Shown here in pieces: positions 20,950 through 46,163 of a stretch of 64,000 nt of DNA; positions within the stretch are counted from its first letter, which is position 1, and each line of letters begins with the position of its first letter. The position numbers and the translations under genes are program-made. The notes beneath the pieces were generated by a model, which was not told the origin of the DNA, did no database searches, and saw only the letters and a list, made by a program, of their open reading frames with translations. Where the stretch lies: the NCBI GenBank assembly GCA_965204375.1, contig OZ241986.1:6208001-6272000 (forward strand). The letters run 5' to 3'. This DNA comes from Candidatus Latescibacterota bacterium. GTDB taxonomy: Bacteria > Latescibacterota > UBA2968.

Positions 20950-20984
20950 ATCCGGAGATACACATTGTGTCTCCGGATTTTTTT
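20950..20984 (+). terminator. Rho-independent terminator after the response regulator
   Basis: atccggaga(ta)cac-att-gtgtctccggat followed by a T run; second copy at 31078-31111. Confidence 0.75.
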
Positions 20985-20994
20985 GTGTCTGCTG

Positions 20995-21032
20995 TGCAAT
21001 ACGGGGTTTGCAGGTGCAATATTTAGTTTGCA
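20995..21032. promoter_or_regulatory. Putative enhancer (UAS): two tandem TGCAA-N8-TTGCA palindromes
   Basis: TGCAATACGGGGTTTGCA and TGCAATATTTAGTTTGCA, 20-bp period, upstream of a sigma-54 promoter; identical copy at 31122-31159. Confidence 0.65.
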
Positions 21033-21084
21033 CTGTTTGGGCGTTTTTGGGGTGAAATGGCCTTTTTCTGGGGTAAAATGGTTT

Positions 21085-21100
21085 TGGCACGGGATTTGCA
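21085..21100 (+). promoter_or_regulatory. Sigma-54 (-24/-12) promoter, copy 1
   Basis: TGGCAC-GGGAT-TTGCA, an exact match to TGGCAC-N5-TTGCW. Confidence 0.85.
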
Positions 21101-21197
21101 TATATCGGGAGTGAACAAAACGCAGGGGCGAAAAATCTTTCTCTCAGAATCCCGTAGGATCTCCCACAGGAGGAGGGATACATGCCTATTTTTAGAT

Positions 21198-21234
21198 ATA
21201 GCAAAATTGCCGCTTAATTCTGTCCAAATTATTG
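21198..21234 (+). mobile_element. Remnant right end of an IS related to the element at 29458-30865
   Basis: tatagcaaaattgccgcttaattctgtccaaattattg aligns with the IS end tatggcaatattgccgcttaattctgtccgaaccattg. Confidence 0.7.
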
Positions 21235-21287
21235 AATATAAATCACAAAAATATTTGAAAACCCACGGGAATGATCGTATTTTATCT

Positions 21288-21480
21288 TTGTCAACAGTCG
21301 AGCAGGTCCCGTTATGTCGGGTATCTGCTGAATACAATAGCCGAGTATAGACATGGACTGATCCCCCATGTCTCGGTAAATAGGTAGGACATTCCCGCAT
21401 TTCTATTCCTGCGTGACTGTTGACAATGCCCGACACCCCTTTTTTGGGGTGTCGAAACAGTCAGTTGTCAACTCGTCACA
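21288..21480 (+). ncRNA. Candidate structured leader RNA / switch, copy 1
   Basis: 19-nt inverted arms at 21288-21306 and 21408-21426 enclose internal hairpins; GC hairpin 21431-21454; third arm 21465-21479; 154-bp core identical to the copy at 35998-36151. Confidence 0.5.
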
Positions 21481-21544
21481 CTGCGCCTTGCGTAGATGAG
21501 GAACGAAATGCGATTTTTTTTGTACGACACAAAAGGAGAAATCC

Positions 21545-25243: not shown

Positions 25244-27682
25244 ATGAGAATAGAATGCAGGATACTCAGGATAAGCGCGTGTTTGTTTGCCTTGCTTTGT
25301 CTATCGTCTGTTGGAGATGCTTCGCCGCCATCTGCTGGGGACAATGTGCATTTTTGCCGAGTTCTCGATTACGAAGACATGCAGGAGCGCGATAGTTTGT
25401 ATGTTGCCACGAAGCACGCGCTCAATTTGAATGTTGGCGAACCTCGTACCGTGCGAATGATCTACTTCTTGCCGAATGACCGTCCCTTTCGCCAGGAAGT
25501 GGTGGATTCGATGAAAGTGACGATTCGCCAGATTCAGACGTTTTATGCGGAACAGATGCAGGCGCATGGATATGGCAACAAGACCTTCCGCTTTGAGACC
25601 GATGCAGAGGGCGAGCCAATGGTTCACCGCCTGGATGGGCAACATCCCGATAGTTACTATCTCACCTATACCTTTGGTAAGACACTCTATGAGGTTAGAC
25701 AGGCATTTGATGACCTGAGGAATATTTACTTGATTGTCATTGACAATGGTGAGAACGTTATAGGAGGTAACTGGGCAGGATTTGCATTCTCATACGAAAA
25801 AAGTGGCGTTGCATTTTTACCTGGAGAATTTCGTTGGACAAATGCCGCCCATGAACTTGGACATACTTTTGGATTACAGCACGATTTCAATGATGGTGCG
25901 TACATGATGTCGTATGGTCCAGGAAAAGATCAGTTATCTGCGTGTACGGCCAAATATTTGGCCGTACATCCCTACCTCAATCCCGATGTCGAAGCTAAAG
26001 AATTATCGCCGCCAACAATCCAACGCATTTCGTCGTCTGGATATCCGCCTGATGCAACGAGCGTCTCTATCCGCCTGAAAGTCAGCGACTCAGAAGGGCT
26101 TCATCAAGTGATCCTGTACGTTGAAACAGTGCTACCACACCCGGCTACTGGATCTCTAGAAGTAAAGGCGTTCCAGGTATTGGACGGTGAGAGCGATACT
26201 GTCGTTGAATTTGATTATGACGGTGTTATTCCATCTGATGGCTTTACGAGGTTAGGAAATCCTCTTGTACATCCGATTTCCGTTGAGGTCATTGATACTG
26301 ACGGAAATGTTAAACGTGAGTCTTTTGGATTATGGGAAATTTTGTCACAACATATCGCCACTTTTGAAGGGGATAAGGGTGAGGTCCGTTCTGTGTCATT
26401 TTCACCAGATGGTAGGGGCGTCGCTTCTACGTCGCAGAATCGGATCAAATTATGGGAAATTAAAGAAAGAAAAAATATTGCCACTCTTGAAGGGCATACA
26501 GGAGAGGTCAATTCTTTAGCGTTCTCTCCAGATGGACAGATGCTCGCTGCCGGAGCGTGGCAGGAGTTAAAACTGTGGGACGTTGCAACGCGAAGAAATA
26601 TCGCCACTTTTGAAGGGCATACGTATGACGTACGTTCTGTGGTGTTTTCTCCAGATGGCTCAACACTTGCTTCTGGGTCTTCTGATAGCACGCTCAAACT
26701 ATGGGACGTTGCGACAGGAAGAAAAATTGCCACTTTTGAAGGGCATACGGGTGAAGTCTATTCTGTTGCATTTTCACCCGATGGAACGATCCTCGCTTCC
26801 GGGTCATGGGATAACACAGTCAGAATGTGGGATGTTGCGACAGGAGAAAATATCGCTACCCTTGAGATGACTACCTCTGGTGTCTTTTCTGTGTCATTTT
26901 CACCCGATGGAACAATCCTCGCTTCTGGGTCGCAGGATGGCACGCTCAAGCTATGGGACGTTGCAACACTGACAAATATCGTTACTTGGCAAGCAGATAC
27001 TGTCTTTTCTGTGTCATTTTCACCCGATGGAACAATTCTCGCTTCTGGAGCGTGGCGGGAGTTCAAGCTGTGGAATGTTGTAACGAGAAAGAATATCGCC
27101 ACCCTTAAAGGACATACAAATAGGGTCTTTTCTTTAGCGTTTTCACCCGATGGGACGACGCTCGTTTCAGGATCCGAAGATCGCACAGTCAAACTATGGG
27201 ATATGTCGGCGTATGTCACGCCTGTAGTCCGCATCCCCGATGCCAACCTGCGTGCGGTGATTCGAGATGCGCTGGGCAAGTCGCGTTTTGCACCTATTAC
27301 AGTGACGGATATGGCGAGTTTGACTACTCTGGACGCGAGCAGCCACAATATCCGCGATTTGACCGGGCTGGAGTCTGCAACCAATCTGACCGAGTTGAAT
27401 CTTGTGGACAATCCGCTGAGTGCGCCAGCCATCAACACGCATATTCCAGTGCTTCAGGACAGAGGTGTTGAGGTCTTGTTTGACAAGACGCCGACGCCCG
27501 ATTTTGATGGCGATGGGATTATAGGCATTGGCGATTTTTTGCTTTTTGTGGCGCAGTTTGGATTCAGTGATGGCGATGATGGGTATGACGCGCAGTTCGA
27601 TCTGGATGGGGATGGCATGATTGGAATTAGCGATTTTCTGATTTTTGCCAATGCCTTCGGCAAATCTGTATCATCAAATTAA
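25244..27682 (+). CDS. Secreted zinc metalloprotease + WD40 propeller + LRR + dockerin/EF-hand-like tail
   Basis: HELGHTFGLQH metzincin motif with Met-turn; about 7 GH..V.S..FSPDG..WD repeats; IPDANLRAVIRDALGK LRR cap; PDFDGDG..DFL.F tail. Confidence 0.85.
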   Translation: MRIECRILRISACLFALLCLSSVGDASPPSAGDNVHFCRVLDYEDMQERDSLYVATKHALNLNVGEPRTVRMIYFLPNDRPFRQEVVDSMKVTIRQIQTFYAEQMQAHGYGNKTFRFETDAEGEPMVHRLDGQHPDSYYLTYTFGKTLYEVRQAFDDLRNIYLIVIDNGENVIGGNWAGFAFSYEKSGVAFLPGEFRWTNAAHELGHTFGLQHDFNDGAYMMSYGPGKDQLSACTAKYLAVHPYLNPDVEAKELSPPTIQRISSSGYPPDATSVSIRLKVSDSEGLHQVILYVETVLPHPATGSLEVKAFQVLDGESDTVVEFDYDGVIPSDGFTRLGNPLVHPISVEVIDTDGNVKRESFGLWEILSQHIATFEGDKGEVRSVSFSPDGRGVASTSQNRIKLWEIKERKNIATLEGHTGEVNSLAFSPDGQMLAAGAWQELKLWDVATRRNIATFEGHTYDVRSVVFSPDGSTLASGSSDSTLKLWDVATGRKIATFEGHTGEVYSVAFSPDGTILASGSWDNTVRMWDVATGENIATLEMTTSGVFSVSFSPDGTILASGSQDGTLKLWDVATLTNIVTWQADTVFSVSFSPDGTILASGAWREFKLWNVVTRKNIATLKGHTNRVFSLAFSPDGTTLVSGSEDRTVKLWDMSAYVTPVVRIPDANLRAVIRDALGKSRFAPITVTDMASLTTLDASSHNIRDLTGLESATNLTELNLVDNPLSAPAINTHIPVLQDRGVEVLFDKTPTPDFDGDGIIGIGDFLLFVAQFGFSDGDDGYDAQFDLDGDGMIGISDFLIFANAFGKSVSSN

Positions 27683-27697
27683 CAGGAGGAGAACGCC

Positions 27698-27848
27698 ATG
27701 CACACCGGACACAACATCCGCCAAGCCATTGCCATATTTGTAACCACAACGCTCCTGCTCAACACGATGGCTCCTTGAGCGTCTCAACTTGAGCGTTGCA
27801 CCCATATCCACAAAAGGGCTTCGCGCCGCGCTTACGTTTAATTTTTAA
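27698..27848 (+). pseudogene. Internally deleted family X gene (signal peptide joined to the C-terminal tail)
   Basis: MHTGHNIRQAIAIFVTTTLLLNTMAP* immediately followed, out of frame, by ERLNLSVAPISTKGLRAALTFNF*; syntenic with 45081-46163. Confidence 0.85.
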
Positions 27849-27984
27849 TTGAGGCTGGCGAAGACTAAATCCGCACAGAAAAAAGTCGACCGTACTGGTC
27901 GCCTAAGAATAGTACTTCAATGTCTCGATTTTACACACGCTGTTTGGCGGGCTGCGCGGGGACGCCCATCAACATGCCTTCTGT

Positions 27985-29412
27985 CTAATCCTCCGGTAGG
28001 CCGATCTGAAAAATCGCCATTTTTCCCTTTGCTGTGAGGCGGTATTTCTGATTTGGGCTCCTCGGCGATTCGGGCTGTGTCATTTCAACAAGTCCTGTTG
28101 TCATAACGGGTTGCATATAGTTGTAAAAAAACGTGGGGCGATGATGTAATCCAAGGGCTTTCATTGCCTCGCGTGCGCTCAAGGGTTCATTTTTTAGGCA
28201 GTTCAGGATGCGTTTAGCTTGTTCGGTTACTTGTTCGGTAGCTTGTTCGGGTTCCTTGTGAACCGCGATGTTTTCAAGTAACGGTACGGTAACACGCATC
28301 CGCATACCGATTTCCTCAATACGCAACTCCGACAGCCCCAGTGCTTCAGCCTCGCGAAAGATGCGGGGAATGCCGCTGCCCCATTGTTCAATCAGATTGA
28401 GTTCGCGAAAGATGCGTGCAATGACATGGTTGCGTATTTTAGAGATACCCTGGCGAATATCGTCAAAGGTCAAACCCGGCAGCAATATGCCGGGATTTTC
28501 GACCTCGATTTGATCATCAAAGAAAGCCACCCGAATGGGTGTTCCCTTTTGTGAATAGTCAGCGTGAACGAGCGCGTTAATGACCACTTCGCGCAAAATT
28601 ACAAGGGGAATATTCCAGGTGTCTTTGCGCCGGACTTCAGAGAAATCAGCACCGCGCATGGCGTGCTTTTTGAGAAATAACATGATGCTTTCCACGGCCA
28701 GGGGCAACGGGTCGTGCAGTTCTATATGATCGAAGATATCCGCTTTGTCCCGACCAATGAAACGTCCGCATTGTACCCAGGCATCGGGGAAATGTCTTTC
28801 CCGCTCTTTTCCGACGAGCAAAATCGCGCCTTTTGTCGGCACCTGTCGCCCCTGCTCATTCGTCAATAGCCTCAGAGTGTGCAATTCTCGTTCGCCGAGG
28901 TCGCGCCGATCCTGAAATAGATTTTCCAGTACCCCCAAGTCCAAATCATTAACCGATAACTCGGGCATCGGGAGTTCATCAAAAGCAATCCCTTCTACCG
29001 AGCGGCCCAACTCGGCGATCAATTCCCTATCTGCCACACGATTGGTGGAGCCTAAACGGACATAGACACCGAGATCAGGGCCTTCGGCTTCCAAATAGTG
29101 TGGACGGACTCCGCTCAGAAAAACTTCTACTACAAGCAGAGTTTTGCCATCAACCGTCGTCATTTCGACATTGGGTACCAAACGCGGTCTGATCGAGTCG
29201 GCGATCAAACTACAAAGCCGTTCCTCTTCATCAAGCGGATTTTCTACCCCCACTGGCAAACGAGATATATCATCCACACCGATAATTACCCGCCCACCCG
29301 CTGTATTCGCAAATGCCACCAGAGTTTTCAGCAGATTTTTTGGTGAAGACAAGTCCCGCTTAAATTCCAGCGTCTTACCTTCCCCTTGCTTGATATAATC
29401 AGCAACCGTCAT
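27985..29412 (-). CDS. AlbA_2 (Schlafen-like) + HATPase_c_4 (RecG C-terminal-like) + wHTH protein
   Basis: GEGKTLEFK, AFANTAGG..IIGVDD, LRE.VINALVHADY, RN..IA, EQWGSGI, C-terminal PRSPNQKYRLT. Confidence 0.88.
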   Translation of the reverse strand: MTVADYIKQGEGKTLEFKRDLSSPKNLLKTLVAFANTAGGRVIIGVDDISRLPVGVENPLDEEERLCSLIADSIRPRLVPNVEMTTVDGKTLLVVEVFLSGVRPHYLEAEGPDLGVYVRLGSTNRVADRELIAELGRSVEGIAFDELPMPELSVNDLDLGVLENLFQDRRDLGERELHTLRLLTNEQGRQVPTKGAILLVGKERERHFPDAWVQCGRFIGRDKADIFDHIELHDPLPLAVESIMLFLKKHAMRGADFSEVRRKDTWNIPLVILREVVINALVHADYSQKGTPIRVAFFDDQIEVENPGILLPGLTFDDIRQGISKIRNHVIARIFRELNLIEQWGSGIPRIFREAEALGLSELRIEEIGMRMRVTVPLLENIAVHKEPEQATEQVTEQAKRILNCLKNEPLSAREAMKALGLHHRPTFFYNYMQPVMTTGLVEMTQPESPRSPNQKYRLTAKGKMAIFQIGLPED

Positions 29413-29579
29413 GGCTTCATGGTCTCCCAATAAGTTTACAAATCACATCATCTGTATCAATACTTCGGACAGTTTTTTTTAAAGGTTACAAAAAATCATA
29501 GACAAAAAAGTGCCGTTCACGCAGATTGGATGTCAAAGATATCCAAATCAACGACAATCCAAACAAGTGAGACGGCACA

Positions 29580-30848
29580 ATGGAACTGGCAGAAAAGATA
29601 CTCAATCGGATAAACTTATGCAAACCCCAAAAAAAGTTTCTCATCACGCTTTTTACTACCATACTCATTGCACGAGGCAAAATCAATTTTCGCAACCTTT
29701 CACGTTATTCCCATTACAGTGAGCGCACATACGCACGCCAATTTGACAAATCCTTTAACTTTATGGCGTTCAACCGTGCCATCATCAATGACTGTATAGA
29801 TCAAGATCAAGATCAAGACCAAAATCAAGATCAAGACCAAGACCAAGCACCTGCGCGTATCCTGGCCTTAGATGCCTCTTTTATCCCCAAATCTGGGAAC
29901 AAAACTTATGGCTTAGACTACTTTTTCAATGGCTGTCATTGCAAAACAGAAAAGGGCTTAGAAATCAGTGGGGTGGCACTTGTTGATGTGGAAGAAAACA
30001 CAGCCTATCCTCTTTCGGTTCGACAAACCGCCCCTATCTCTGAGACTGAAAACAGCCAACAAGGTGATGGTGATAGTGATGGTGAAAACCGTATTGACCA
30101 GTATTTACAACACTTACGAGAGATAACACCTTACCTCAACGCGGATGAAACCTATCTGTGTGTGGATGGCTTCTTCTCGAAGAAGAAATTTATTGATGGC
30201 GTGACCTCCCGCCACCTCCACCAAATTGGCAGATTGCGATACGATGCCAACATGCGCTATCTTTATACAGGCCCCAAAAGGGAGAAAGGCTCTGGCAATC
30301 AGAAAACATACGACGGCAAAGTTGATTGGCAGGACTTATCGCGCTTTACCTATCACCACACACAAGACGGCATTGCCTTGTATAGCCAGATACTCAATCA
30401 CCAATGCTTTAAAAGAAATCTCAAAGTCGTTGTCCTACTCAATGAGAAGATCAAGAGCAAGAAAAATTATGTCCTCTTGTTTTCTACCGATCCGCATTTA
30501 GAGGCCCAAAGCGTGGTCACCTATTACAAAGCACGCTTCCAGATTGAATTTATTTTTCGTGATGCCAAACAATTTACTGGCCTATCCGATGCGCAAACCC
30601 GGGATCAAAAACGCCTCGACTTCCATTTTAATGCGTCCTTGACAACGCTGAATCTATCCAAAGCAGAGCACTTGAAAACCCAGTCAGATACCCCGACAAA
30701 GCCTTTTTCGATGACCAGCATAAAAGCCTGTTATTTCAACACTTTTTTCCTTGAAAAGTTTTTTTCAATGTTTGATCTTGACCCTAAGCACATAAAAAAA
30801 TCACCCAAATACAAATATCTTATCAATTATGGCAATATTGCCGCTTAA
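29580..30848 (+). CDS. DDE transposase
   Basis: LALDASFIPKSG, VDGFF and Y..RFQIEFIFRDAKQ (YREK-type) motifs. Confidence 0.92.
   Translation: MELAEKILNRINLCKPQKKFLITLFTTILIARGKINFRNLSRYSHYSERTYARQFDKSFNFMAFNRAIINDCIDQDQDQDQNQDQDQDQAPARILALDASFIPKSGNKTYGLDYFFNGCHCKTEKGLEISGVALVDVEENTAYPLSVRQTAPISETENSQQGDGDSDGENRIDQYLQHLREITPYLNADETYLCVDGFFSKKKFIDGVTSRHLHQIGRLRYDANMRYLYTGPKREKGSGNQKTYDGKVDWQDLSRFTYHHTQDGIALYSQILNHQCFKRNLKVVVLLNEKIKSKKNYVLLFSTDPHLEAQSVVTYYKARFQIEFIFRDAKQFTGLSDAQTRDQKRLDFHFNASLTTLNLSKAEHLKTQSDTPTKPFSMTSIKACYFNTFFLEKFFSMFDLDPKHIKKSPKYKYLINYGNIAA
29799..29846 (+). repeat. Hexamer microsatellite (GAYCAA)x8 inside the transposase
   Basis: Encodes DQDQDQDQNQDQDQDQ. Confidence 0.9.
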
Positions 30849-31077
30849 TTCTGTCCGAACCATTGCTGTATAATACTGAAAATAGTAAGCACAAGTAAAT
30901 ATATCCAAACCCAGTTGGAAAGTAAACAACCCATACTTTTGTCCAGATAATAACATTTGACAATATCTCGCGGCATCCTTGCCGCGATCAGGTCGGGAAG
31001 CGGAGTACAACTGCGCCAGCAGTTCAAAGGATTTCCCTCCTACGTGATATTTACAAATTTCTAATCCGTTGGATGAG

Positions 31078-35984: not shown

Positions 35985-36177
35985 TTGTCAACAGTCAAGC
36001 AGGTCCCGTTATGTCGGGTATCTGCTGAATACAATAGCCGAGTATAGACATGGACTGATCCCCCATGTCTCGGTAAATAGGTAGGACATTCCCGCATTTC
36101 TATTCCTGCGTGACTGTTGACAATGCCCGACACCCCTTTTTTGGGGTGTCGCAACACGCAGTTGTCAACCAGTCACA
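35985..36177 (+). ncRNA. Candidate structured leader RNA / switch, copy 2
   Basis: Arms at 35985-36003, 36105-36123 and 36162-36176; core identical to copy 1. Confidence 0.5.
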
Positions 36178-36247
36178 CTGCGCCTTGCGTAGATGAGGAA
36201 CGAAATGCGATTTTTTTTGTACGGCAGCAAATGAAAAGGAGAAATCC

Positions 36248-37777
36248 ATGCAGGTCGAATACAACGCGAGTAGAGCCATCGCCATCCTGGTCACTACAGC
36301 CCTCTTGTTCAATGCGATGATGCCAACACTCGCACACGCAGCCACATATCTACAAGGCGCAGAGGTCAATGCCAATACGCTCATTCGAGATGCTTATGTG
36401 CAAGTCACCTATTACGATAGCAATGCAGAACAGAAATTGGCGAAGGGATGGATTGATACTATTGGTAAAACTTCGTTCACAATCCGAGAAGGAGGATTCA
36501 GAGACAAGAAGACCATTGCCTACGACAAAGTGCTGTCAGTGATCATGAGCGACGAATCAACTGTGCCAGCGAAGCAGATGAATGAGGTGAATCGGTTTAT
36601 TCGAGAGATGAGAAAAAGAGAGATAGAGCAAAATAAAAAAGAGAAAGAAGCAAAAGAAGCGCAGACTGTCATCATGTCACAGGGGCAGATTGATCTTTCA
36701 AAGATTATGAAGGGATGGTATGCCCATGTGGTCTATACATCAGAAGGTGTGCAAGAAACTACAACCGGAAAAATTATCAGGCAAGATTCTGTGCATATTG
36801 TGATCAGAGTGCAAGAGGAGCGCGCATTGAGAATTTTGAAAACAATAGCATATAAGGACATCGATACCCTCGTTATCGCCCAACACGCGCAGAGTATTGA
36901 AGCATGGAAAAATGCAAAACAGATCCAAAGATACCTTGAAAATGGATACAATATCCAAGTGCTTGTCCAGGCCTCTTCAATCTGGGAGAATCGGGTGGTT
37001 GGCAGACTCGTCAAAATGACACCGGACACACTCGTTATCTCAGGAGGAGGCACATTTTTTCAAGTACCTGTGTCTTCGATCTCCAATTTTGAAGTGAACA
37101 TTGGACAGCATAGAAACACGGGAAAAGGCACAGATTATATCTTAATTAGAGTTGAGGATAAAGCATTGAAATCTTGGAAAACAATAGCATACCGTGACGT
37201 GGATACCCTCGTTATTACCCAACACACACGAGATATTGAAGGATGGGGAAATGTACGACAGACCCAAGGACACAGGGAACAATCTACGCAACAACTCTCT
37301 GAAGGAGAACCCAGAGTGCGTGTTTATGCGCCTTCAATTCGGAAGGGATGGATGGTCGGCAAGTTGGTTAAAAAGACGCAAGATACACTCGTTGTCCGTG
37401 GAGAACTTACACTTTATGGACGTAGATTTTATCAGGTGCCTCTTTCTTCAATCTCCTATCTCGAGGTCAGTGCTGGAAAGTATAGAAATACATTCAATGG
37501 CATGAAAATCGGACTGTACATTAGTCTCGGAGTTGCTGCAATATTGGCTGTGTCTGCTGTAACTTCGGAATCCGAAGCAGCCCTTATACTCTCAGATGTG
37601 GAGACTACGAGTCTTTTTCTATTTTTCGTGTCGCTACCTATTACTACCGTTGCGACTATAATTGGTACGCTGATCAAATCTGACAAATGGGTCGGGGTAT
37701 CTCCTGATCGCCTCAACCTGAGCGTTGCACCCACATCCACAAAAGGGCTTCGCGCCGCGCTCACGTTTAATTTTTAA
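36248..37777 (+). CDS. Family X member 5 (internally duplicated/chimeric)
   Basis: Module order A-B-C-partial B-C, then hairpin and tail. Confidence 0.85.
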   Translation: MQVEYNASRAIAILVTTALLFNAMMPTLAHAATYLQGAEVNANTLIRDAYVQVTYYDSNAEQKLAKGWIDTIGKTSFTIREGGFRDKKTIAYDKVLSVIMSDESTVPAKQMNEVNRFIREMRKREIEQNKKEKEAKEAQTVIMSQGQIDLSKIMKGWYAHVVYTSEGVQETTTGKIIRQDSVHIVIRVQEERALRILKTIAYKDIDTLVIAQHAQSIEAWKNAKQIQRYLENGYNIQVLVQASSIWENRVVGRLVKMTPDTLVISGGGTFFQVPVSSISNFEVNIGQHRNTGKGTDYILIRVEDKALKSWKTIAYRDVDTLVITQHTRDIEGWGNVRQTQGHREQSTQQLSEGEPRVRVYAPSIRKGWMVGKLVKKTQDTLVVRGELTLYGRRFYQVPLSSISYLEVSAGKYRNTFNGMKIGLYISLGVAAILAVSAVTSESEAALILSDVETTSLFLFFVSLPITTVATIIGTLIKSDKWVGVSPDRLNLSVAPTSTKGLRAALTFNF

Positions 37778-37821
37778 TGACCGCTCTTTTGACAAATACC
37801 AATTGTGCAAGGTGAACGATT

Positions 37822-38865
37822 ATGAAGCGATATACGCTAATTGGGCTATGCACATTGTGTATATGGCTCATGGCGGGTGAAGGGTTTGCCCAGCCGATCA
37901 GATCACTCGTTTTAGTTTTTCCCAACAATGGCCGCATAGCAGCCTTGGGGGAGGCTGGTGTGGGGTTGATCGGGAGCGGGCAGGCCATTTTTTACAATCC
38001 CGCAGGGCTGGCTTTTATGGAGGGTCGAGAAGCGTATTTTACGTATGTAAATTGGTTTAGTGGTATCAAGAACTATGTGGCTGGTGTTTCAGCAAATGTA
38101 CCGCGTATAGGGACATTTGGGTTTTCTGCTGTGAATTTCGATAACACGAATGATAATGAGAGCGAATATGCCATTTCTGGGGCTTATGCGTTCAATATTA
38201 CCCGCCGGATTGCAGCAGGAGCCACTGTCAAGCTGGCGCATCACGACTATTCCAGAGCAAGCATGCTATATCGCGAAAATGATATTTTTCATGAATTTCA
38301 AGATGGTCGTTTTCATGAATATCCAGACTCAACTCAGAAATATGTTCACAATTTTTTTCTTTTTGATGTGGGTGCGTATTCCGTGGGGTTCCAAAATTTG
38401 GTGCTGTCGCTGAGCGTGCATAATTTGAGCGCGAGGGGATTAGGCAAGCCAGAGGCATTGGAGCTATCGGAGATTATCCGCCTGGGATTGCTCATCGATT
38501 TGATGTCACTGATGGATATGAGGTCCTTGCCGCATGCGCTGGACCTGGTCATGGGTGTGAATACACGGACCAATTTCGATGGGCCTGTTGAACTGAACAT
38601 GGGCGTCGAATATACGTATTTGTACCGGGCTGCGGACCACTCTTTCGGCGTCTCGCTGCGGGCAGGACGAAGGTCCCAAAGATACTGGCGAGCGACAAAT
38701 CCCACCGTCTGGGGAGGTGGCTTGCAGTTTAAGACCAACGGAGGTTGGGCACTAAAGATGGATTACGCACGTAAGTCCTTCTATTATCGTAGCGAAGTTC
38801 CTGGAAGATTTATTTACACGGTTAATTCTAAAGTACATATTCTCAGCCTTGCTTTTAATTTTTAG
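37822..38865 (+). CDS. PorV/PorQ-like outer-membrane beta-barrel
   Basis: GRIAALGEAGV...AIFYNPAGLA; terminal HILSLAFNF. Confidence 0.8.
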   Translation: MKRYTLIGLCTLCIWLMAGEGFAQPIRSLVLVFPNNGRIAALGEAGVGLIGSGQAIFYNPAGLAFMEGREAYFTYVNWFSGIKNYVAGVSANVPRIGTFGFSAVNFDNTNDNESEYAISGAYAFNITRRIAAGATVKLAHHDYSRASMLYRENDIFHEFQDGRFHEYPDSTQKYVHNFFLFDVGAYSVGFQNLVLSLSVHNLSARGLGKPEALELSEIIRLGLLIDLMSLMDMRSLPHALDLVMGVNTRTNFDGPVELNMGVEYTYLYRAADHSFGVSLRAGRRSQRYWRATNPTVWGGGLQFKTNGGWALKMDYARKSFYYRSEVPGRFIYTVNSKVHILSLAFNF

Positions 38866-38897
38866 AGTGATGTTCACTGATCCGAAAAGGGGAACTT

Positions 38898-39974
38898 ATG
38901 GTACGAATAGCAGCAATCGTTTGGATGTTAAGCTTCTGTATGCCAGAAACCGTACTGGCAGGAGCGGTCTTTGAGGCTGGTGAGATTGATAGCAGCACGG
39001 TTAAACCCGGTGCCTATGTCGAGATTATCTATGGGAGTGGGGAGCGAGATCCAGTGTCAGGAGCGTGGGAGAGACTGGATACTGCAAGGGGGTATATTCA
39101 AGCTATTGATGCAGAGCGGTTGGTCCTTGGTGAGCGGTTTTGGAAGAAGGAAATAGAGTTAGAATGCATCCAAAAGTTGACGATTCCAGACACTGATGGC
39201 GAAATGGGTGACATTAGTGGGATCGGCTCGCCTTTTGGATCACGGACATTGCAGGCGGAGATCGTTTTAGAAGCCGGTGAGATTGATAGCAGTGCGGTTG
39301 AAGTCGGTGATTTTGTCGAGGTTATCTATGGGAAGGGAGAGCGAGATCCAGTGTCAGGAGCGTGGGAGAGACTGGATACTGCGAAAGGATATGTCAAAGC
39401 TGTTGATGCGGAGTATATGATCATTGGCGAGCGATTTTTGGAGGATCAGATCGCATTGGAGCGCATTCAAAAGCTGATTATTTCAGACTTCGCTCGCGAG
39501 TTGGATAGGTCGGGGGATGAGATTGGCGGCACTGTTGCGACAGCGTATCGAAACGTTTGGCCCTTTTTGGGTATTGCGCCTGGTACGGTCATTTTGGTTG
39601 GGGAAAATTTTAGTATTAGTTTTGTTCACGTTTTTACCGGGTTTGAGCTTGGAACTGGGCAATTTAGCGCGAGTATAGAGGCAGGGTATGGCTCACCAAT
39701 TGAAGCATTGCAGTGGGGCGTTGGTGTTTTTTCGGTGAATGGAAATTTTCATCTTGTTAAAAAACATCGTCTGAATACTGGCGTTCCTTTTTTGTCAGTT
39801 GGCTATACGGCTTTGGTGAGGGAGGGAAGCACGAGTTTATTCAATGTCGGGGCGGGTATAACCTGGTGGTCTCATAAAGGCAGAAGTCTGCGTCTGGAAG
39901 TGCGAGATCATATTACCTGGTCAGGTGGAGAAGGCGCACATGCTCTGGAATTCAGGATCAGTGCTGTTCGGTAA
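38898..39974 (+). CDS. Two tandem Sm-like modules fused to an OmpA-like beta-barrel
   Basis: Internal repeat with 297-bp offset; C-terminal amphipathic strands (PFLSVGY, FNVGAGI, LRLEVRDH). Confidence 0.7.
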   Translation: MVRIAAIVWMLSFCMPETVLAGAVFEAGEIDSSTVKPGAYVEIIYGSGERDPVSGAWERLDTARGYIQAIDAERLVLGERFWKKEIELECIQKLTIPDTDGEMGDISGIGSPFGSRTLQAEIVLEAGEIDSSAVEVGDFVEVIYGKGERDPVSGAWERLDTAKGYVKAVDAEYMIIGERFLEDQIALERIQKLIISDFARELDRSGDEIGGTVATAYRNVWPFLGIAPGTVILVGENFSISFVHVFTGFELGTGQFSASIEAGYGSPIEALQWGVGVFSVNGNFHLVKKHRLNTGVPFLSVGYTALVREGSTSLFNVGAGITWWSHKGRSLRLEVRDHITWSGGEGAHALEFRISAVR

Positions 39975-39996
39975 TCATCTGATATATGGAAAGGTA

Positions 39997-40887
39997 ATGA
40001 CCATGAGAAGATATGCGCTAATTGGGTTATGCATACTCATTGGGTTGATGGCGGATGAAGGGTTTGCCCAGGGGCTGAATGCCCGAAAAACAGCTTTGGC
40101 TGGTGCGGGCATAGGCTTGATTGGGAGCGGGCAGGCCATTCAGTACAATCCAGCAGGATTGGCCTTTATGGATGGTTGGGAGGCATATTTCATGTTTATG
40201 GATAGAAATACAAGTTATAGCGGGTATGATGGTGAAAGGGCATACAAAGCTGGTATTGCTGGAAACACAGGCATAGGGACTTTTGGACTTTCCGCCACTT
40301 CGGGTCGTATTAGGGCTGATGATGTGAACGAATATTCCATTTCAGGTGGCTATGGGTACAAGATTAACAACCGGCTTGCTGTGGGGGCCACCCTCCGTCT
40401 CTTCCATTCTGAATGGCTCGAGACCAACGACTTAGACCTTGATCTGGGTGCATATTTCGTGACCGGGCTGCGGAATACAGTTGTTGCAGCAGGTGTGGAG
40501 AATTTGAAGACTGGGATAGGTAATTCAAATCGTGTTAGGCTCCGTGCTGGGTTGTTCCTTGACATGATGTCGCTACTGGATTTGGAGTCTTTGTTACACT
40601 ATTTGGACCTTTCTGTAGATGTGAACGATTATATCAATGTTGACGGAGATCCTTGGGCGAATCTGGGCATTGAATATCAGCACAGATACTTGCTATCAGG
40701 CTATGCGTTAGAAATCGCATTGTGTGGAGGAATGCAATCGATATATGGCCGTGGCTCGGCTAAGACAACCTGGGGCGGTGGACTGAAGTTTGAGACAGAA
40801 GGTGGCCGTGGCATCAAGGTAGATTACGCGTCTTTTGGTTCCGAAATTTACCCTGGCCACATTGTCAGCATGGCATTCATATTTTAG
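39997..40887 (+). CDS. PorV/PorQ-like outer-membrane beta-barrel
   Basis: Close paralog of 22776-23639; AIQYNPAGLA; ends HIVSMAFIF. Confidence 0.75.
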   Translation: MTMRRYALIGLCILIGLMADEGFAQGLNARKTALAGAGIGLIGSGQAIQYNPAGLAFMDGWEAYFMFMDRNTSYSGYDGERAYKAGIAGNTGIGTFGLSATSGRIRADDVNEYSISGGYGYKINNRLAVGATLRLFHSEWLETNDLDLDLGAYFVTGLRNTVVAAGVENLKTGIGNSNRVRLRAGLFLDMMSLLDLESLLHYLDLSVDVNDYINVDGDPWANLGIEYQHRYLLSGYALEIALCGGMQSIYGRGSAKTTWGGGLKFETEGGRGIKVDYASFGSEIYPGHIVSMAFIF

Positions 40888-40979
40888 GTCAAAATTCCAA
40901 GCTCAGCCGCCCTTGGAAAGGTCCTTTGACAAGCTCGGGCAATGGTTCGGTTATATACCTGCACACCAAGGAGAGATCG

Positions 40980-42173
40980 ATGCAAATAGTCACTATGGTT
41001 ATGATAATGGCAATTCTGTTCAGCGCGGTGGCTCCCACGCTCGCATACGCAGCCATATACTTGCAAGGCACAGAGGTCAATGCCAATACGTTGGTCCAAG
41101 ATGCTTATGTGCGAGTCACTTATTACGATAGCAATGCAGAACAGAAATTGGCGAAGGGATGGATTGATACTATTGGTGAAACTTCGTTCACAATCCGAGA
41201 AGGAGGATTCAGGGGTAAGAAGACCATTGCCTACGACCAAGTTGTGTCAGTGATCATGAGTGACGAATCAACAGCACCTGTAAAGCAGATGAATGAGGTG
41301 AATCGGTTTATTCGAGAGATGAAGAATAGAGAGATAGAGCAGACGAAAAAAGAGAAAGAAGCAAAGGAAGAGCAGATAAAAAGAGAGGCTGAACAGGCTG
41401 CCATTCAACGGCTCAAACAGCGTCTAAAAGACAAGGTCGTTATGATTGGGCAATTCGACTTATCGAAGAGGGAATGGTATGCCCATGTGGTCTATACTTC
41501 TAAAGAAGGATATAAAAGAACAGCAATCGGACAGATTATCAAGCAAGACACGGATCATATCGTGATCAGAGTGCAGGAGAGAGGAGGATTGAAAATTAAG
41601 AAAACAATAGCATACACTGACATCGATACGCTCGTTGTCGCCAAACAGTGGTCAGATATCGAGAGGTATCGAGAAAGCGGTGTGCAATACAATGCCAAAG
41701 TGCGTTTCAAAGCCCCTTTAGTTTCAGAAAGGCGGATGACTGGCAGGCTTATAGCAGTTAAGCAAGATACTCTCGTTATTGAGGGTCCCTTGCGACCTTT
41801 TATACCTGGACGCCGACAACGACTGGTCAAAATGACGCATTACGTCCCTCTTTCATCAATCTCGAATCTCGAAGTTAGCATCGGACAGCAGAGAGAAGTC
41901 ACTAAAGGTCTGTTAATGGGGGTCGGACTTGGAATTGTTGTCTATGTAACTCAATCTCCTGAACCCTGCCCTGATCCTCCCGACTGTACTTTCGCAGGCT
42001 TAGAAGAATTAGGTGCATGGATCCTTGCAGGAGGAACTTGTATGATTTTTACTCTGATTGGTGCTCAAATAAAATCTGAAAAATGGGTTGAGGTTCCACC
42101 GCAACATCTCAACTTGAGTTTTGCGCCTACATCTTCAAAAGGGCTTCGCGCTGCACTCACGTTTAACTTCTAA
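40980..42173 (+). CDS. Family X member 6
   Basis: Conserved N-module and tail; Cys-pair loop CPDPPDC in the hairpin. Confidence 0.85.
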   Translation: MQIVTMVMIMAILFSAVAPTLAYAAIYLQGTEVNANTLVQDAYVRVTYYDSNAEQKLAKGWIDTIGETSFTIREGGFRGKKTIAYDQVVSVIMSDESTAPVKQMNEVNRFIREMKNREIEQTKKEKEAKEEQIKREAEQAAIQRLKQRLKDKVVMIGQFDLSKREWYAHVVYTSKEGYKRTAIGQIIKQDTDHIVIRVQERGGLKIKKTIAYTDIDTLVVAKQWSDIERYRESGVQYNAKVRFKAPLVSERRMTGRLIAVKQDTLVIEGPLRPFIPGRRQRLVKMTHYVPLSSISNLEVSIGQQREVTKGLLMGVGLGIVVYVTQSPEPCPDPPDCTFAGLEELGAWILAGGTCMIFTLIGAQIKSEKWVEVPPQHLNLSFAPTSSKGLRAALTFNF

Positions 42174-42302
42174 TGTCAGGGTCTGTTCTACAGAATATGC
42201 GGTTGGGGATGCTCATTGATGTGATTGCGCTCGGTCACACATGTAAGACCGCGCTTGTATGTGGCGTTTTCGAAATGGTCGGAGAAAGGATGAGGTGATG
42301 TC

Positions 42303-45065
42303 ATGAGAATAGAATGCAGGATACTCAGGATAAGCGCGTGTTTGTTTGCCTTGCTTTGTCTATCGTCTGTTGGAGATGCTTCGCCGCCATCTGCTGGGGA
42401 CAATGTGCATTTTTGCCGCGTTCTCGATTACGAAGACATGCGGGAGCGCGATAGCATTTATGCTGCTACGAAGCACGCGCCTAATCTGAACGTTGGCGAA
42501 CCCCGCACGGTGCGAATGATTTACTTTTTGCCGAATGACCGTCCCTTTCGCCAGGAAGTGGTGGATTCGATGAAAGTGACGATTCGCCAGATTCAGACGT
42601 TTTATGCGGAACAGATGCAGGCGCATGGACATGGGAACAAGACCTTTCGCTTTGAAACCGATGCTCAGGACGAACCAATAGTTCATCGCGTGGATGGACA
42701 AAATCCTACTAATCATTATTCCAATCATACGCCTGTTTTGAGGTACGAGGTTGCACAGAAATTTGATCTCTCAGCGAACATTTACTTCCTTGTCATTGAC
42801 AATGGTACAAATACAGTTGATTTATTAGGCTTTCAAGTGGGAGGGATAGCAATCACACACGGGAATAGTAGAGTTGCGTTGATTCCTGGCGATTTTTTTT
42901 GGACAACAGCAGCACATGAACTTGGACATACCTTCGGATTGGGTCATGACTTCAACGATGATGCATACATCATGTCGTACGGTCCAGGACAAGATCGGTT
43001 ATCTGAGTGTAGTGCTGGGTTTTTAGCAGTGCATCCCTACTTTAATCCGGATGTTGAAACGATAGATACACAGCCGACAATAATCAAACTCATTTCATCG
43101 CAGGACTATCCAGCAGACTCAAAGAGTGTCTTGATCCAACTCAAAGTCAGCGATTCAGATGGGATTCATCAAGTGTTCCTATTTCTTGAAGACGAAGTGA
43201 AGGCGTGTCGTAGATTGCATGGAGAAAAAGATGCTGTCGTTGAATTCGATTATGACGGCGTTTTTCCCTCTGATAACAGCACGAGTCTTTCCGATCCTAA
43301 TATACATCCGATTGATGTGAAGGTTGTTGATACTTTTGGGAATGAGAACTCTCTTCATTTTCTGTTGCGGAACATTTCGGCACCGGGTAAGATCATCGCC
43401 AAGTTTGATGCACATACGAATAATCATGTTACTTCAGTATCATTTTCGCCCGATAGCAAAATACTTATATCAGGGTCATTCGATGGTACGATTAAACTGT
43501 GGGACGTTGCGATACGACGACCTATCACCACTCTACGTACCGGTTCTGTCTTCTCTTTAGCATTGTCGCCTGATGGCACGATGATCGCTATTGGGTCTAA
43601 TCATAGGGTTGACCTATGGGATATTGCGACAGAAAAAAATATTACCCCTCTTGAGTGGTCTATACTTCACTACGTCCATTCTGTAGCGTTTTCACCTGAT
43701 GGCACGATGGTCGCTGCGGGGGCGGGACATGACTCGGGAGGAGGGGGCACAGTTAGACTGTGGGATGTTGCAACAGGAGAAAATATCGCCAATCTTGAGG
43801 GGGATATGAGTTATGTCTGGTCTGTGACATTTTCGCCAGATGGTACCACACTCGCTATCGGGTCAGAGCAGGGAATTATACTGTGGGACATTTCGACGAA
43901 AAATTTTGACACTCTTACGGGATATACAAGAAGGGTCAATTCTGTAAAGTATTCACCCGATGGCACTATCCTCGCGTTAGGGACAGGGGGTGACTACGAG
44001 ACCGCAGCATCTTTTTTGGGGGGCAGAATCTATGTGTGGGAGGTTCCGTCTTGGAGCACTATTGCCACTCTTGAGGGACATTTCGCAGGTGCCTTGTCTG
44101 TAGCATTTTCGCCAGACGGAATGATTCTTGCCTCGGGAGCATTAGATCACACGGTCAGATTGTGGGACGTTGCTACGGGAATAAATATCGCTACCTTTGA
44201 AGCGCATACGGAGGTGGTCCGTTCTGTGGCATTTTCTCCCGATGGGACGATCCTCGCTTCTGGTGCAGGGGATGGCAAGGTCATGCTTTGGGATATGTCA
44301 GATTATGTCACGCCTGTGGTCTATATGCCCGATGCCAACCTGCATGCGGTGATCCGAGATGCGCTGGGCAAATCGCGTTTTGCGCCTATTACCACGACGG
44401 ATATGGCGAGTTTGACTACTCTGGATGCGAGCAACCGCAATATCCGCGATTTGACCGGGCTTGAGTTTGCAACCAATCTGACCGAATTGAATCTTGTGGA
44501 TAATTGGCTGAGTTCGTTGTCTATTAACACGCATATTCCAGCCTTGCAAGAGAGAGGTGTTGAGGTCTTGTTTGACAAGCCTACGACGCTGGTGAATATC
44601 TCAGATAGTGAACAGGAAGGCGTGCCCGGTGCCGTGTTGGGGATGCCTCTGGTCGTTGAAGTGCGAGATCAGGGGGGGGATGTGCTTGCAGGTTCGCCGG
44701 TCACTTTTGTTGTCACGGAAGGAGATGGGGCGCTCAGTGTAGAAACCACTGTGACCGATTCGAGTGGTCGGGCATCGAGCGTGCTGACGCTTGGTAACAG
44801 TTTGGAGCCAATCACTGTTTCGGTTATGGTTGCGGGAATTGAGCAACCGGTGATCTTTTTGATAGAAGCTATGGCTACACCCGATTTCGATAGGGATGGT
44901 GCTGTTGGTTTTGCCGATTTTTTGCTATTTGTAGCACAGTTCGGGTTCAGTGAGGATGATGAGGGTTATGACGTGTGGTTTGACTTGGATGGTGATGGCA
45001 CGATTGGATTTGGGGATTTTCTGATTTTTGCCAATGCCTTTGGCAAAGCCGTATCGTCGAATTAA
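42303..45065 (+). CDS. Secreted zinc metalloprotease + WD40 + LRR + Ig-like (Big_1) + dockerin/EF-hand-like tail
   Basis: HELGHTFGLGH; WD40 repeats; LRR; PLVVEVRD..VTF.V..TD..G Big_1 pattern; paralog of 25244-27682. Confidence 0.85.
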   Translation: MRIECRILRISACLFALLCLSSVGDASPPSAGDNVHFCRVLDYEDMRERDSIYAATKHAPNLNVGEPRTVRMIYFLPNDRPFRQEVVDSMKVTIRQIQTFYAEQMQAHGHGNKTFRFETDAQDEPIVHRVDGQNPTNHYSNHTPVLRYEVAQKFDLSANIYFLVIDNGTNTVDLLGFQVGGIAITHGNSRVALIPGDFFWTTAAHELGHTFGLGHDFNDDAYIMSYGPGQDRLSECSAGFLAVHPYFNPDVETIDTQPTIIKLISSQDYPADSKSVLIQLKVSDSDGIHQVFLFLEDEVKACRRLHGEKDAVVEFDYDGVFPSDNSTSLSDPNIHPIDVKVVDTFGNENSLHFLLRNISAPGKIIAKFDAHTNNHVTSVSFSPDSKILISGSFDGTIKLWDVAIRRPITTLRTGSVFSLALSPDGTMIAIGSNHRVDLWDIATEKNITPLEWSILHYVHSVAFSPDGTMVAAGAGHDSGGGGTVRLWDVATGENIANLEGDMSYVWSVTFSPDGTTLAIGSEQGIILWDISTKNFDTLTGYTRRVNSVKYSPDGTILALGTGGDYETAASFLGGRIYVWEVPSWSTIATLEGHFAGALSVAFSPDGMILASGALDHTVRLWDVATGINIATFEAHTEVVRSVAFSPDGTILASGAGDGKVMLWDMSDYVTPVVYMPDANLHAVIRDALGKSRFAPITTTDMASLTTLDASNRNIRDLTGLEFATNLTELNLVDNWLSSLSINTHIPALQERGVEVLFDKPTTLVNISDSEQEGVPGAVLGMPLVVEVRDQGGDVLAGSPVTFVVTEGDGALSVETTVTDSSGRASSVLTLGNSLEPITVSVMVAGIEQPVIFLIEAMATPDFDRDGAVGFADFLLFVAQFGFSEDDEGYDVWFDLDGDGTIGFGDFLIFANAFGKAVSSN

Positions 45066-45080
45066 CAGGAGGAGAACGCC

Positions 45081-46163
45081 ATGCACACCGGACACAACAT
45101 CCGTCAAGCCATTGCCATATTTGTAACCACAACGCTCCTGCTAAACGCGATGACTCCAACGCTTGCACACGCAGCCACATATCTGCAAGGTGCAGAGGTC
45201 AATGCCAATACGTTGGTCCAAGATGCCTACGTTGCAGTCACATATTACGATAGCAAAGGCAAACAGAAATTGGAGAAGGGATGGATTGACGCGGTTGGTG
45301 AAACTTCGTTCACAATTCGCAGTGGACATTGGACCAAGAAGACGATTGCTTACAACAAAGTTCTGTCAGTGATCATGAGCGAAGAATCAGCCATACTAAA
45401 GCAGATGAATGACGTGAATCAGTTGATTCGGGATATGGAATTGCCGGAGGTTGTCATCATGTCACGCGAACAGATTGATGCTTCAAAGATTACGAAAGGA
45501 TGGTATGCCCACATTGCCTATACATCAGATAAGAAGAAAAAAAATGCAACTGGAAAGATTACCGATAGAGACTCAGACCGTATTGTAATTCAAAAGAGGG
45601 AAGAATTCTGGAAAAATTGGAAAATAGCATATAATGAGATGGATACACTCGCTGTTGCGAAACATCAACGGGATATTGAAGGATGGATGTTTATGCGATT
45701 GCTCCAGGAGGGAAATGCCAAAGTGCGTGTCCGTGTCCCTTCGATTAAAAAGAAATGGATGGTTGGCAAGGTCGTAAAAATGACGCAAGACACACTCGTT
45801 ATCCTACGAGGTCGTAGCTTTTATCAGGTGTCCCGTTCTTCAATCTCCAACCTTGAAGTCAACATTGGACAGTATAGAAACACAGAAAAAGGAGCGGCAA
45901 TTGGACTTGGAATTGGAGTTGGCATTCTTGCCCTATCTGCTTGGGATGTACATAAAGCCGACGACGAAAGTAGAGGGTGGGCTGAACTTGAACTTATTTT
46001 GGTCGCTGTACCTGCTGCTGTTCTCACCACTTTAACTGGTACGATAATTGGCGCAATGGACAAATCCGACAAATGGGTCAAGGTGTCGCCTCAGAGTCTC
46101 AACCTGAGCGTTGCACCCACATCGGGTAACGGGCTTCGCGCCGCGCTCACGTTTAATTTTTGA
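45081..46163 (+). CDS. Family X member 7
   Basis: Conserved N-module; ends SLNLSVAPTSGNGLRAALTFNF. Confidence 0.85.
   Translation: MHTGHNIRQAIAIFVTTTLLLNAMTPTLAHAATYLQGAEVNANTLVQDAYVAVTYYDSKGKQKLEKGWIDAVGETSFTIRSGHWTKKTIAYNKVLSVIMSEESAILKQMNDVNQLIRDMELPEVVIMSREQIDASKITKGWYAHIAYTSDKKKKNATGKITDRDSDRIVIQKREEFWKNWKIAYNEMDTLAVAKHQRDIEGWMFMRLLQEGNAKVRVRVPSIKKKWMVGKVVKMTQDTLVILRGRSFYQVSRSSISNLEVNIGQYRNTEKGAAIGLGIGVGILALSAWDVHKADDESRGWAELELILVAVPAAVLTTLTGTIIGAMDKSDKWVKVSPQSLNLSVAPTSGNGLRAALTFNF

Follow-up and report, generated by a model that had tools for sequence, protein, structure and literature searches.

A sigma-54-associated envelope locus in a Candidatus Latescibacterota bacterium: a fixed lipid core and a variable array of an unnamed protein family

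Positions 17349-46163 of a 64,000-nucleotide stretch of a Candidatus Latescibacterota genome (the window; G000:C1:6208001-6272000, where G000 is the source genome, a single contig of 6.34 Mb) hold a sensor kinase/NtrC pair, two promoter modules, a set of lipid genes and an array of PorV-like barrels, proteases and paralogs of an unnamed family that we call family X. All positions given here are window coordinates unless a genome or locus is named. The best-supported reading is that of an envelope locus controlled by sigma-54 and its NtrC-type activator, in which a fixed lipid core is joined by a variable array; we propose, tentatively, that it is an inducible envelope-remodelling island in which the X proteins act as membrane anchors or adaptors. 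The kinase and NtrC protein would act on TGCAA-N8-TTGCA palindromes and a -24/-12 sigma-54 promoter, which would drive a CDP-alcohol phosphatidyltransferase, a flippase-like protein of the HpnL/MprF type and a small protein resembling outer-membrane proteins (OMPs). The most likely task of the lipid genes would be the synthesis of a special phospholipid and its transfer across the membrane. In this genome the array is attached to the core, with the promoter module duplicated before part of it. The X proteins are pictured as exported, membrane-anchored adaptors with 1-4 SH3-like domains on the periplasmic side, held in the membrane by an alpha-helical hairpin of the glycine-zipper kind, whose loop is acidic and variable, and ending in a conserved amphipathic beta-tail with a terminal Phe; they would organise or tether the neighbouring barrels and the lipid, rather than being shuttled as cargo.

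Predicted sigma-54 control and the conserved lipid core

The regulatory logic of the locus is clear. Orthologs of the kinase that are 72-96% identical adjoin NtrC in relatives, and rpoN is present in the genome. The initial annotation, made from the sequence alone, had set the two regulators beside PrsK/PrsR-type pairs, which drive sigma-54 expression of PEP-CTERM surface-sorting systems, and as in such pairs a multi-transmembrane GAF kinase and an NtrC-type activator do lie beside a sigma-54 promoter for envelope genes. Both proteins, however, score below the equivalog cut-offs: the kinase reaches 131.9 bits against a cut-off of 300 in the PrsK model TIGR02916, with an alignment that runs from the membrane part onwards, and the activator 400.8 against 502.6 in TIGR02915 (PrsR). 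Among the window open reading frames (ORFs) scanned, the search being limited to the window, there is no exosortase or PEP-CTERM.

Each promoter module combines a terminator-like hairpin and its T-run with two TGCAA-N8-TTGCA palindromes, spaced 20 bp from each other, the promoter itself and, as ribosome-binding site, AGGAGG. The two copies had been called identical, which is true of the paired palindromes; overall they are near-identical, at ~90.6% over 234 nt with one 12-nt indel. A pattern search for exact TGGCAC-N5-TTGCW found two sites only in the 64 kb, at 21085 and 31224, both reading TGGCACGGGATTTGCA. When up to two mismatches were allowed, 45 sites were found against ~37 expected, a count so near to chance that only the exact pair is meaningful. 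The promoter recurs in relatives: TGGCACGGG(A/G)TTTGC(A/G) lies 45-120 nt upstream of the PgsA-like transferase gene in 20/20 collected loci for which the region is available (13, then 4 from the sister family, then 3, in successive scans; two families, one order). Collected loci are stretches from related genomes and carry L numbers; L014, which starts inside the gene, was omitted from this count. The -24 GG/-12 GC elements, the upstream palindromes, the adjacent activator and rpoN are all present, and from these sequences we strongly infer that the conserved promoter and the adjacent activator work together.

Module 1 sits 460 nt from X1, with the scar of an insertion sequence (IS) end and a structured leader between them. 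The split layout NtrC-module-X block-AlbA(-)-module-PgsA is found again in L011 and in L009/L027 and is therefore older than this strain. The array is presumably induced and co-transcribed with the core. Contigs of a metatranscriptome run (labelled X6, like one of the genes) lie over 29/30 bins of 27000-46999, and DNA run X4 from the same sample covers the region alike; the cover includes the opposite-strand AlbA gene and the spacers. All runs are contigs, so transcription, strand and start sites are not readable from them. The second RNA run (X21) matched the IS repeat only.

The two lipid genes match the initial annotation, as CDP-OH_P_transf and LPG_synthase_TM/HpnL-like proteins. The first passes PF01066 (58.5 vs 22) with the motif D-x2-DG-x2-AR-x8-G-x3-D-x3-D intact, and it misses the pgsA equivalog TIGR00560 (60.7 vs 109.1 bits). 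The second passes PF03706 (91.8 vs 33.4) and falls short of HpnL TIGR03476 (147.7 vs 195.65 bits). The arrangement recalls known pairs of a CDP-alcohol phosphatidyltransferase with an MprF/HpnL-type protein, from which it differs in that the transferase is not the housekeeping pgsA, being one of 6 such paralogs in the genome, and in that no hopanoid genes are nearby. The product is a putative special phospholipid. A link of LPG_synthase_TM with a PorV paralog is also seen near G000:297-300 kb; going by the ORF listing alone, it seemed unrelated. The third core gene encodes a 174-aa exported protein with no Pfam or NCBIfam match, whose atlas look-alikes score 0.97 and which is conserved 3' of HpnL in the genus. 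The look-alikes support it, indirectly only, as a probable small outer-membrane beta-barrel, one of the two small barrels annotated initially.

Kinase, NtrC, PgsA and HpnL genes are contiguous in eight same-genus loci (L010, L012, L013, L029, L031, L039, L040 and L072), and the usual layout in the genus, sulfatase-kinase-NtrC-PgsA-HpnL-174-aa protein-X...-AlbA(-), is seen in all of these except L072, with a sulfatase upstream of kinase and NtrC in L031 and no match to the 174-aa protein in L039. The sister family has (kinase-)NtrC-PgsA-HpnL-X in 8/13 loci (L033, L034, L036, L041, L042, L043, L063 and L064), and X lies directly 3' of HpnL in all eight. Of the other five, L035 is an X array at the end of a contig, L037 has X genes and barrels in an array but no core in the surrounding 20 kb, L062 and L065 are X-core genes that stand alone, and L073 is an HpnL paralog. 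The sulfatase is found 5' of the kinase in the genus and was not seen in the sister-family loci that include the upstream flank. L072 (G004:C1:3155000-3174999) comes from a genome of the same genus, G004, which is 99% complete and a single contig; there, sulfatase-kinase-NtrC-PgsA-HpnL-174-aa protein is followed by AlbA and the same flanking genes. The association that the initial annotation proposed to test is conserved, in that the kinase, NtrC, PgsA and HpnL genes with X genes after them recur in the genus and in the sister family. The conserved unit is the regulated lipid pair and the array is accessory, because G004 has the former without the latter.

Family X and its predicted fold

The seven intact X paralogs that had been annotated are all present, with two remnants in addition. 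They are 40-61% identical to X1 and vary in the number of their middle modules; conservation is highest in the N-terminal head and over the final ~25 residues. As had been anticipated, the family matches nothing characterised: no Pfam or NCBIfam family reaches threshold, with only a marginal likeness to the RimP C-terminal SH3 domain (DUF150_C) in which no stretch is significant alone, and homologs are unnamed in all sources searched, "hypothetical protein" at most. Literature keyword searches, which were few and excluded supplements, returned no description of the locus or of family X, and in a paper on sponge-associated Latescibacterota (PMC12993501) the terms dockerin, type IX, PorV and sigma-54 each occur 0 times.

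In G000 a profile of the seven X proteins matches only this locus and, weakly, two places elsewhere; it also matches 36/41 related genomes (19/20 in the genus, 15/16 in the sister family). An X-core profile matches 61/168 genomes of the phylum, distributed as 26/30, 20/22, 2/3 and 12/76 in families f1 to f4 and 0 in the other ten families. An exhaustive search gave 2325 cluster representatives at E <= 0.001, 326 at 1e-10 and 96 at 1e-30; they include proteins of Gemmatimonadota and Acidobacteriota with a single SH3-like domain. The part common to the wide family is the last SH3-like module with the hairpin and the tail. Six columns do not vary across distant members: an R within ..VR.., a W within KSDKW and four G. 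Among the columns kept in >=90% of distant rows are the terminal F, the tail P and another two G. The tail can be read as two amphipathic strands with alternating hydrophobic residues.

An AlphaFold2 (AF2) model of X7, built on 87 aligned sequences, has a pLDDT of 88. It predicts a signal helix, three SH3-like beta domains (32-100, 125-193 and 214-266) joined by helices, and after the third of these two helices (268-292 and 298-326, pLDDT ~91-96) followed by a strand, with the tail at pLDDT < 50. Foldseek returned tandem KOW/Tudor/SH3-like matches only for this model, at a query-normalised TM-score <= 0.15. Of 156 members examined, 56 could be parsed; in these the loop between the two helices is acidic (K+R 91, D+E 197) and its flanks are basic (258 vs 117), and a Cys pair occurs in 3/56 loops. 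With an exported N-terminus this is the reverse of the positive-inside rule, so that an inner-membrane hairpin fits poorly. The charge pattern together with the OMP-like ending leads us to favour the outer membrane for X, a placement suggested by a crude parser and one model.

The nearest known architecture is that of the glycine-zipper outer-membrane lipoproteins SlyB and YfgH, a stress-induced class associated with OMPs and, for YfgH, with cardiolipin. The SlyB hairpin reportedly spans the outer membrane (Janssens et al., Nature 2023). The X model likewise combines small beta domain(s) with a glycine-rich helical hairpin, the feature of SlyB-type proteins being a helical hairpin beside a small beta domain, and as for SlyB and YfgH there is a linkage with a phospholipid gene and with OMPs, and expression appears to be stress- or signal-inducible. 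Unlike them, X lacks a lipobox and matches nothing significantly by sequence or in Pfam, and it bears 1-4 SH3-like domains as well as an additional beta-tail at the C-terminus; for want of a lipobox, a Pfam threshold score and a sequence match, X may be said to work like SlyB/YfgH and not to be one of them. A preprint (10.64898/2025.12.22.696046) proposes that YfgH and SlyB form rings round OMPs and cardiolipin/phospholipid nanodomains.

The array, its turnover and its setting

The features of the locus are collected in Table 1 in their order on the contig. All genes between 15964 and 46163 lie on the + strand except the AlbA_2 gene, in agreement with the co-orientation described initially. 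The right-hand boundary at 46163 is correct as well, because a long ORF on the - strand follows (46153-47502); it has a signal peptide and a periplasmic-binding-protein-like sequence starting in its C-terminal part, ModA-like by eye. The signal peptides at the locus were all judged by eye. The G+C content falls to 0.455-0.51 over ~20-48 kb from 0.53-0.56 on the flanks. Stretches near-identical to the window are present in sequencing runs labelled as sponge, coral and marine metagenomes.

Table 1. Features of the locus and its left flank, in window coordinates
Feature	Position	Strand	Remarks
Sulfatase	15964-17352	+	4-nt overlap with kinase start at 17349
Sensor kinase, multi-transmembrane GAF-HisKA-HATPase, PrsK-like relative	17349-19481	+	Pfam; NCBIfam below family cut-off
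NtrC-type sigma-54 activator (REC, Sigma54_activat, HTH_8)	19521-20921	+	Pfam, NCBIfam
Regulatory module 1	20951-21185	+	hairpin 20951-20985; palindromes 20995-21012, 21015-21032; promoter 21085-21100
IS right-end scar (first ~48 nt) and ~300-nt structured leader	21190-21544	+	directly 5' of X1
X1, 378 aa	21545-22681	+	
Barrel 1, divergent PorV/PorQ family, 287 aa	22776-23639	+	
X2, 490 aa	23715-25187	+	
Metzincin-WD40-LRR protein 1	25244-27682	+	C-terminal dockerin-type domain
X remnant, internally deleted gene	27698-27848	+	signal-peptide head, and C-terminal tail in another frame; repeat family D8
AlbA_2/HATPase_c_4 gene	27985-29430	-	
IS with DDE transposase, 1414 bp	29452-30865	+	terminal inverted repeats 29458-29472, 30851-30865
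Regulatory module 2	31078-31340	+	palindromes at 31122-31159; sigma-54 promoter 31224-31239
Accessory CDP-alcohol phosphatidyltransferase (PgsA-like)	31341-31988	+	
Flippase-like LPG_synthase_TM/HpnL-like membrane protein	32069-33148	+	Pfam, NCBIfam
174-aa exported protein, probable small outer-membrane beta-barrel	33209-33733	+	ends ...HAYF
X3, 282 aa	33702-34550	+	divergent, longer glycine-zipper anchor
X4	34585-35679	+	
X N-terminal fragment	35699-35842	+	repeat family D4
Second scar and leader copy	35885-36247	+	5' of X5; repeat family D19
X5, 509 aa	36248-37777	+	
Barrel 2, divergent PorV/PorQ family, 347 aa	37822-38865	+	
358-aa X-superfamily protein	38898-39974	+	two SH3-like heads; C-terminal half possible barrel
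Barrel 3, divergent PorV/PorQ family	39997-40887	+	
X6	40980-42173	+	
Metzincin-WD40-LRR-Big_1 protein 2	42303-45065	+	C-terminal dockerin-like EF-hand pair
X7, 360 aa	45081-46163	+	protein modelled

The annotation of three PorV-like barrels holds at the level of the superfamily. All miss the 90-bit cut-off of the PorV_fam model NF033709, with 30.5 bits for barrel 1, 54.1 for barrel 2 and 33.8 for barrel 3, the last from the whole-genome scan (genome-scan range 19.2-52.4). When 18 locus-type barrels were aligned by hhalign with 12 canonical PorV paralogs of the genome, the probability was 100% (E 1.6e-55, 303 columns); by this profile comparison the three are clearly homologous, as distant PorV/PorQ superfamily members ~18% identical to the canonical paralogs. 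The genome also has a SprA homolog, 20 PorV_fam genes over the cut-off and 10 matches over the cut-off to the C-terminal domain (CTD) of type IX secretion system (T9SS) cargo. Several PorV_fam genes adjoin T9SS-CTD genes by coordinates (for example G000:C1 2961580-2967051, 1861145-1862455, 3173717-3175029 and 4198849-4205565). These sequences suggest that Latescibacterota hold many cognate shuttle-cargo pairs and T9SS-displayed cohesin scaffolds. Linked shuttle-cargo pairs of the T9SS are described in PMC12618676 and PMC9143113 and, reportedly, in PMC5562754. Like the PorV, PorQ and PorP/SprF barrels of that system, the locus barrels lie beside candidate partner genes in a genome with SprA and CTD cargo; unlike them, they score below the cut-off, adjoin X proteins without a CTD, have no PorU/PorZ in their locus, and are sigma-54-controlled and linked to lipid genes. 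A complex prediction for barrel 1 (26-287) with mature X1 (33-378), run with alignments for both and without controls, gave ipSAE values of 0.00 and 0.00, which count neither for nor against the pairing.

The second small barrel of the initial annotation turned out to be the X-type 358-aa protein. Its heads are modelled by AF2 at pLDDT 70-87. Residues 198-358 fall below 50. The C-terminal half has a weak OMP-domain match (17.2 bits) and shows no likeness to the 174-aa protein by BLASTP (E 0.2); it is possibly a barrel. In L009:14619-16112 and L014:3737-4885 an X1-like head is joined to the C-terminal half typical of the 358-aa protein, and from these fusions heads and anchors are exchangeable modules.

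Both metzincins are as annotated, with an HExxH region, WD40 propellers and leucine-rich repeats (LRRs), and both also end in a dockerin-type pair. Metzincin 1 scores 19.6 bits in Dockerin_1 (PF00404) against a gathering score of 22.9, and metzincin 2 has EF-hand matches only; two related cargo proteins reach the cut-off (24.0 and 28.8 bits). Dockerin_1 has 34 matches in G000, 2 of them in genes beside X, and is present in 41/41 relatives. The genome further holds four canonical cohesin matches, two of them in giant-protein frames that also end in a T9SS CTD. As in the cellulosome, the locus proteases are secreted multidomain proteins that end in a duplicated calcium-loop dockerin module in a genome with canonical cohesins; the locus cargo differs in that protease, WD40, LRR and Ig repeats take the place of glycoside hydrolases, and the neighbouring X proteins are not cohesins. 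An older report is said to have described cellulosome-like genes in Latescibacteria. A further eukaryote-like, dockerin-tagged protein is encoded outside the locus at 53801-55009 (-); it is 402 aa long, has LDL-receptor class B (YWTD) repeats and matches a home-made dockerin hidden Markov model.

The proposal that the repertoire diversifies by duplication and recombination is borne out by mosaic patches of 93-95% identity, gene fragments and head/anchor chimeras. The IS is polymorphic, and recent, being absent in related strains: contigs of three public runs join 29451 to 30866 without it. The 355-nt leader element is 92% identical between its copies at X1 and X5 and recurs in nine other loci at 90-95% nucleotide identity; judged by coordinates, an X-type gene begins where most of the copies end. 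Past the scar it folds far better than its shuffles (z = -6.7), and the last hairpin predicted pairs a U-run with the ribosome-binding site. No Rfam family reaches its gathering score; the sub-threshold match to sRNA-Xcc1 (25.5 vs 53 bits) was not relied on. The leader could serve in the control of translation, or it could be a relic of an IS. Apart from the IS and both copies of the leader, four further sites in the genome match the right end of the IS over ~38-48 nt. Farther upstream in the window, at 7015-14869 (+), lies a classical A2M-PbpC pair, in which the gene for a bacterial alpha-2-macroglobulin of 1827 aa precedes that for a PBP1C-type transglycosylase/transpeptidase.

Weighing the readings

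Several observations weigh against an inducible envelope-remodelling island with X proteins as anchors or adaptors. The core of G004 has no X, barrel or protease, so the array may merely borrow the promoter. Other X arrays in the genus lie elsewhere, many without kinase or regulator, and no match to the promoter pattern scanned was found at the arrays of relatives that sit away from these; distant X-core homologs stand alone. The hairpin and its membrane placement rest on one monomer model and the charge argument. None of the glycine-zipper Pfam families PF05433, PF13441 and PF13488 is matched by the window X proteins and only sub-threshold matches occur in distant members (best 26.4 vs 28.9), a search of PDB sequences with the X-core profile gave chance matches only (E >= 0.4), and the signal peptides end by eye in ...A-H/Y-A before the cleavage and A after it, an A-x-A signal-peptidase I site with no lipobox Cys. 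Some of these facts would also suit a locus that is no functional unit at all, that is, a sigma-54 lipid operon beside a recombination hot spot that collects unrelated envelope genes: G004 has the core only, X arrays occur at other sites, and the locus shows the G+C drop together with the IS, its scar and the gene fragments. We regard this as quite improbable, given the X gene directly after HpnL in every sister-family core locus, the module duplicated before the X block in a layout seen again in L011 and L009/L027, and the strict co-orientation with short gaps. A place in the other membrane is also improbable. X proteins anchored in the inner membrane might aid the lipid enzymes in remodelling from the periplasm, their tails docking onto a partner in the periplasm or the outer membrane; at 25-29 residues the hairpin helices would suit either membrane, the missing lipobox means no Lol route to the outer one, and the conserved PgsA-like and HpnL-like partners are inner-membrane proteins. 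The basic flanks and acidic loop contradict the positive-inside rule, however, the terminal ...F-x-F and alternating hydrophobic strands resemble, in our reading, an OMP beta-signal, and the same heads occur on the other C-terminal anchor, that of the 358-aa protein, with its weak OMP-domain match.

The initial annotation had proposed an inducible surface-display or secretion system, in which X would be variable cargo recognised by its C-terminal tail, the PorV-like barrels would shuttle or anchor it and the lipid genes would provide an anchor or patch. The superfamily membership of the barrels fits this, as do the SprA, PorV_fam and CTD genes of the genome, some CTD genes lying beside PorV paralogs, and the type B cargo of the T9SS is linked to and dependent on cognate PorP/SprF barrels according to PMC12618676 and PMC9143113. 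X genes stand upstream of 16 and downstream of 15 of the 30 unique barrels in the collected loci, and the tail is the most widely conserved part of X. Yet X has no T9SS CTD, the window has no TIGR04183 match, nothing shows secretion or surface display, and no PorU-like protein, sortase or exosortase was found among the window ORFs scanned. The modelled hydrophobic hairpin before the tail would be unexpected in exported cargo and suggests, with the tail, a membrane-anchored adaptor instead; the head is best conserved among the paralogs, which is unusual for a variable surface tip, and tandem X arrays of relatives (L019, L022) have few or no barrels. We consider display rather unlikely. That X proteins are non-cohesin receptors or scaffolds for the dockerins of their neighbours, in a cellulosome-like display locus, is very doubtful. 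Each metzincin is directly followed by an X gene or X remnant, 30/49 unique dockerin genes in the collected loci have an X gene within 500 nt downstream, 28/113 X genes have a dockerin gene upstream, and two related cargo proteins pass the Dockerin_1 cut-off. Many of these cases are tandem copies of an Ig-repeat-dockerin fragment with X, so that the counts are inflated and are not independent events: L019:3300-14700 and L022:1-12600 consist of cassettes in which a He_PIG Ig-repeat and dockerin ORF is paired with an X-type gene, and many of the dockerin ORFs have by eye no signal peptide and look as if the C-terminal part of a large gene upstream had been copied and left orphaned. We also rejected the idea that the cassettes are toxin-immunity pairs, since what is repeated is an Ig repeat and a dockerin, with no toxin domain. 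The canonical cohesins of the genome mean that an ordinary dockerin partner exists, and together with dockerin-rich genomes that lack X, such as G004 with 41 Dockerin_1 matches, they weaken the receptor idea; the fold of X is also unlike cohesin.

These considerations leave the envelope-remodelling island with X as anchors or adaptors as the reading we prefer. A bolder form of it, which we think unlikely, would make X, the divergent PorV-like barrels and the PgsA/HpnL pair a new kind of inducible outer-membrane module. A C-terminal beta-signal would target the non-lipidated glycine-zipper X proteins to positions around dedicated barrels in a patch of special phospholipid, and the SH3-like arms would reach into the periplasm and hold partners or the cell wall. 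If that were true, the SH3/glycine-zipper/beta-tail family, with its 2325 cluster representatives, would be a general and so far undescribed class of outer-membrane organisers.

Our results define a large family, unnamed in all sources searched, by its SH3-like domain(s), predicted glycine-zipper hairpin and conserved beta-tail. In an uncultured lineage associated with sponges and corals, they tie one branch of this family to lipid genes and PorV-type barrels within a conserved sigma-54 regulon. The locus shows clearly how an accessory array can shuffle rapidly beside a regulatory core that stays fixed. If the X proteins are outer-membrane organisers or anchors, the idea developed for SlyB and YfgH would extend beyond lipoproteins and beyond Proteobacteria, and it would provide a handle on signal-driven rebuilding of the surface in these symbionts.

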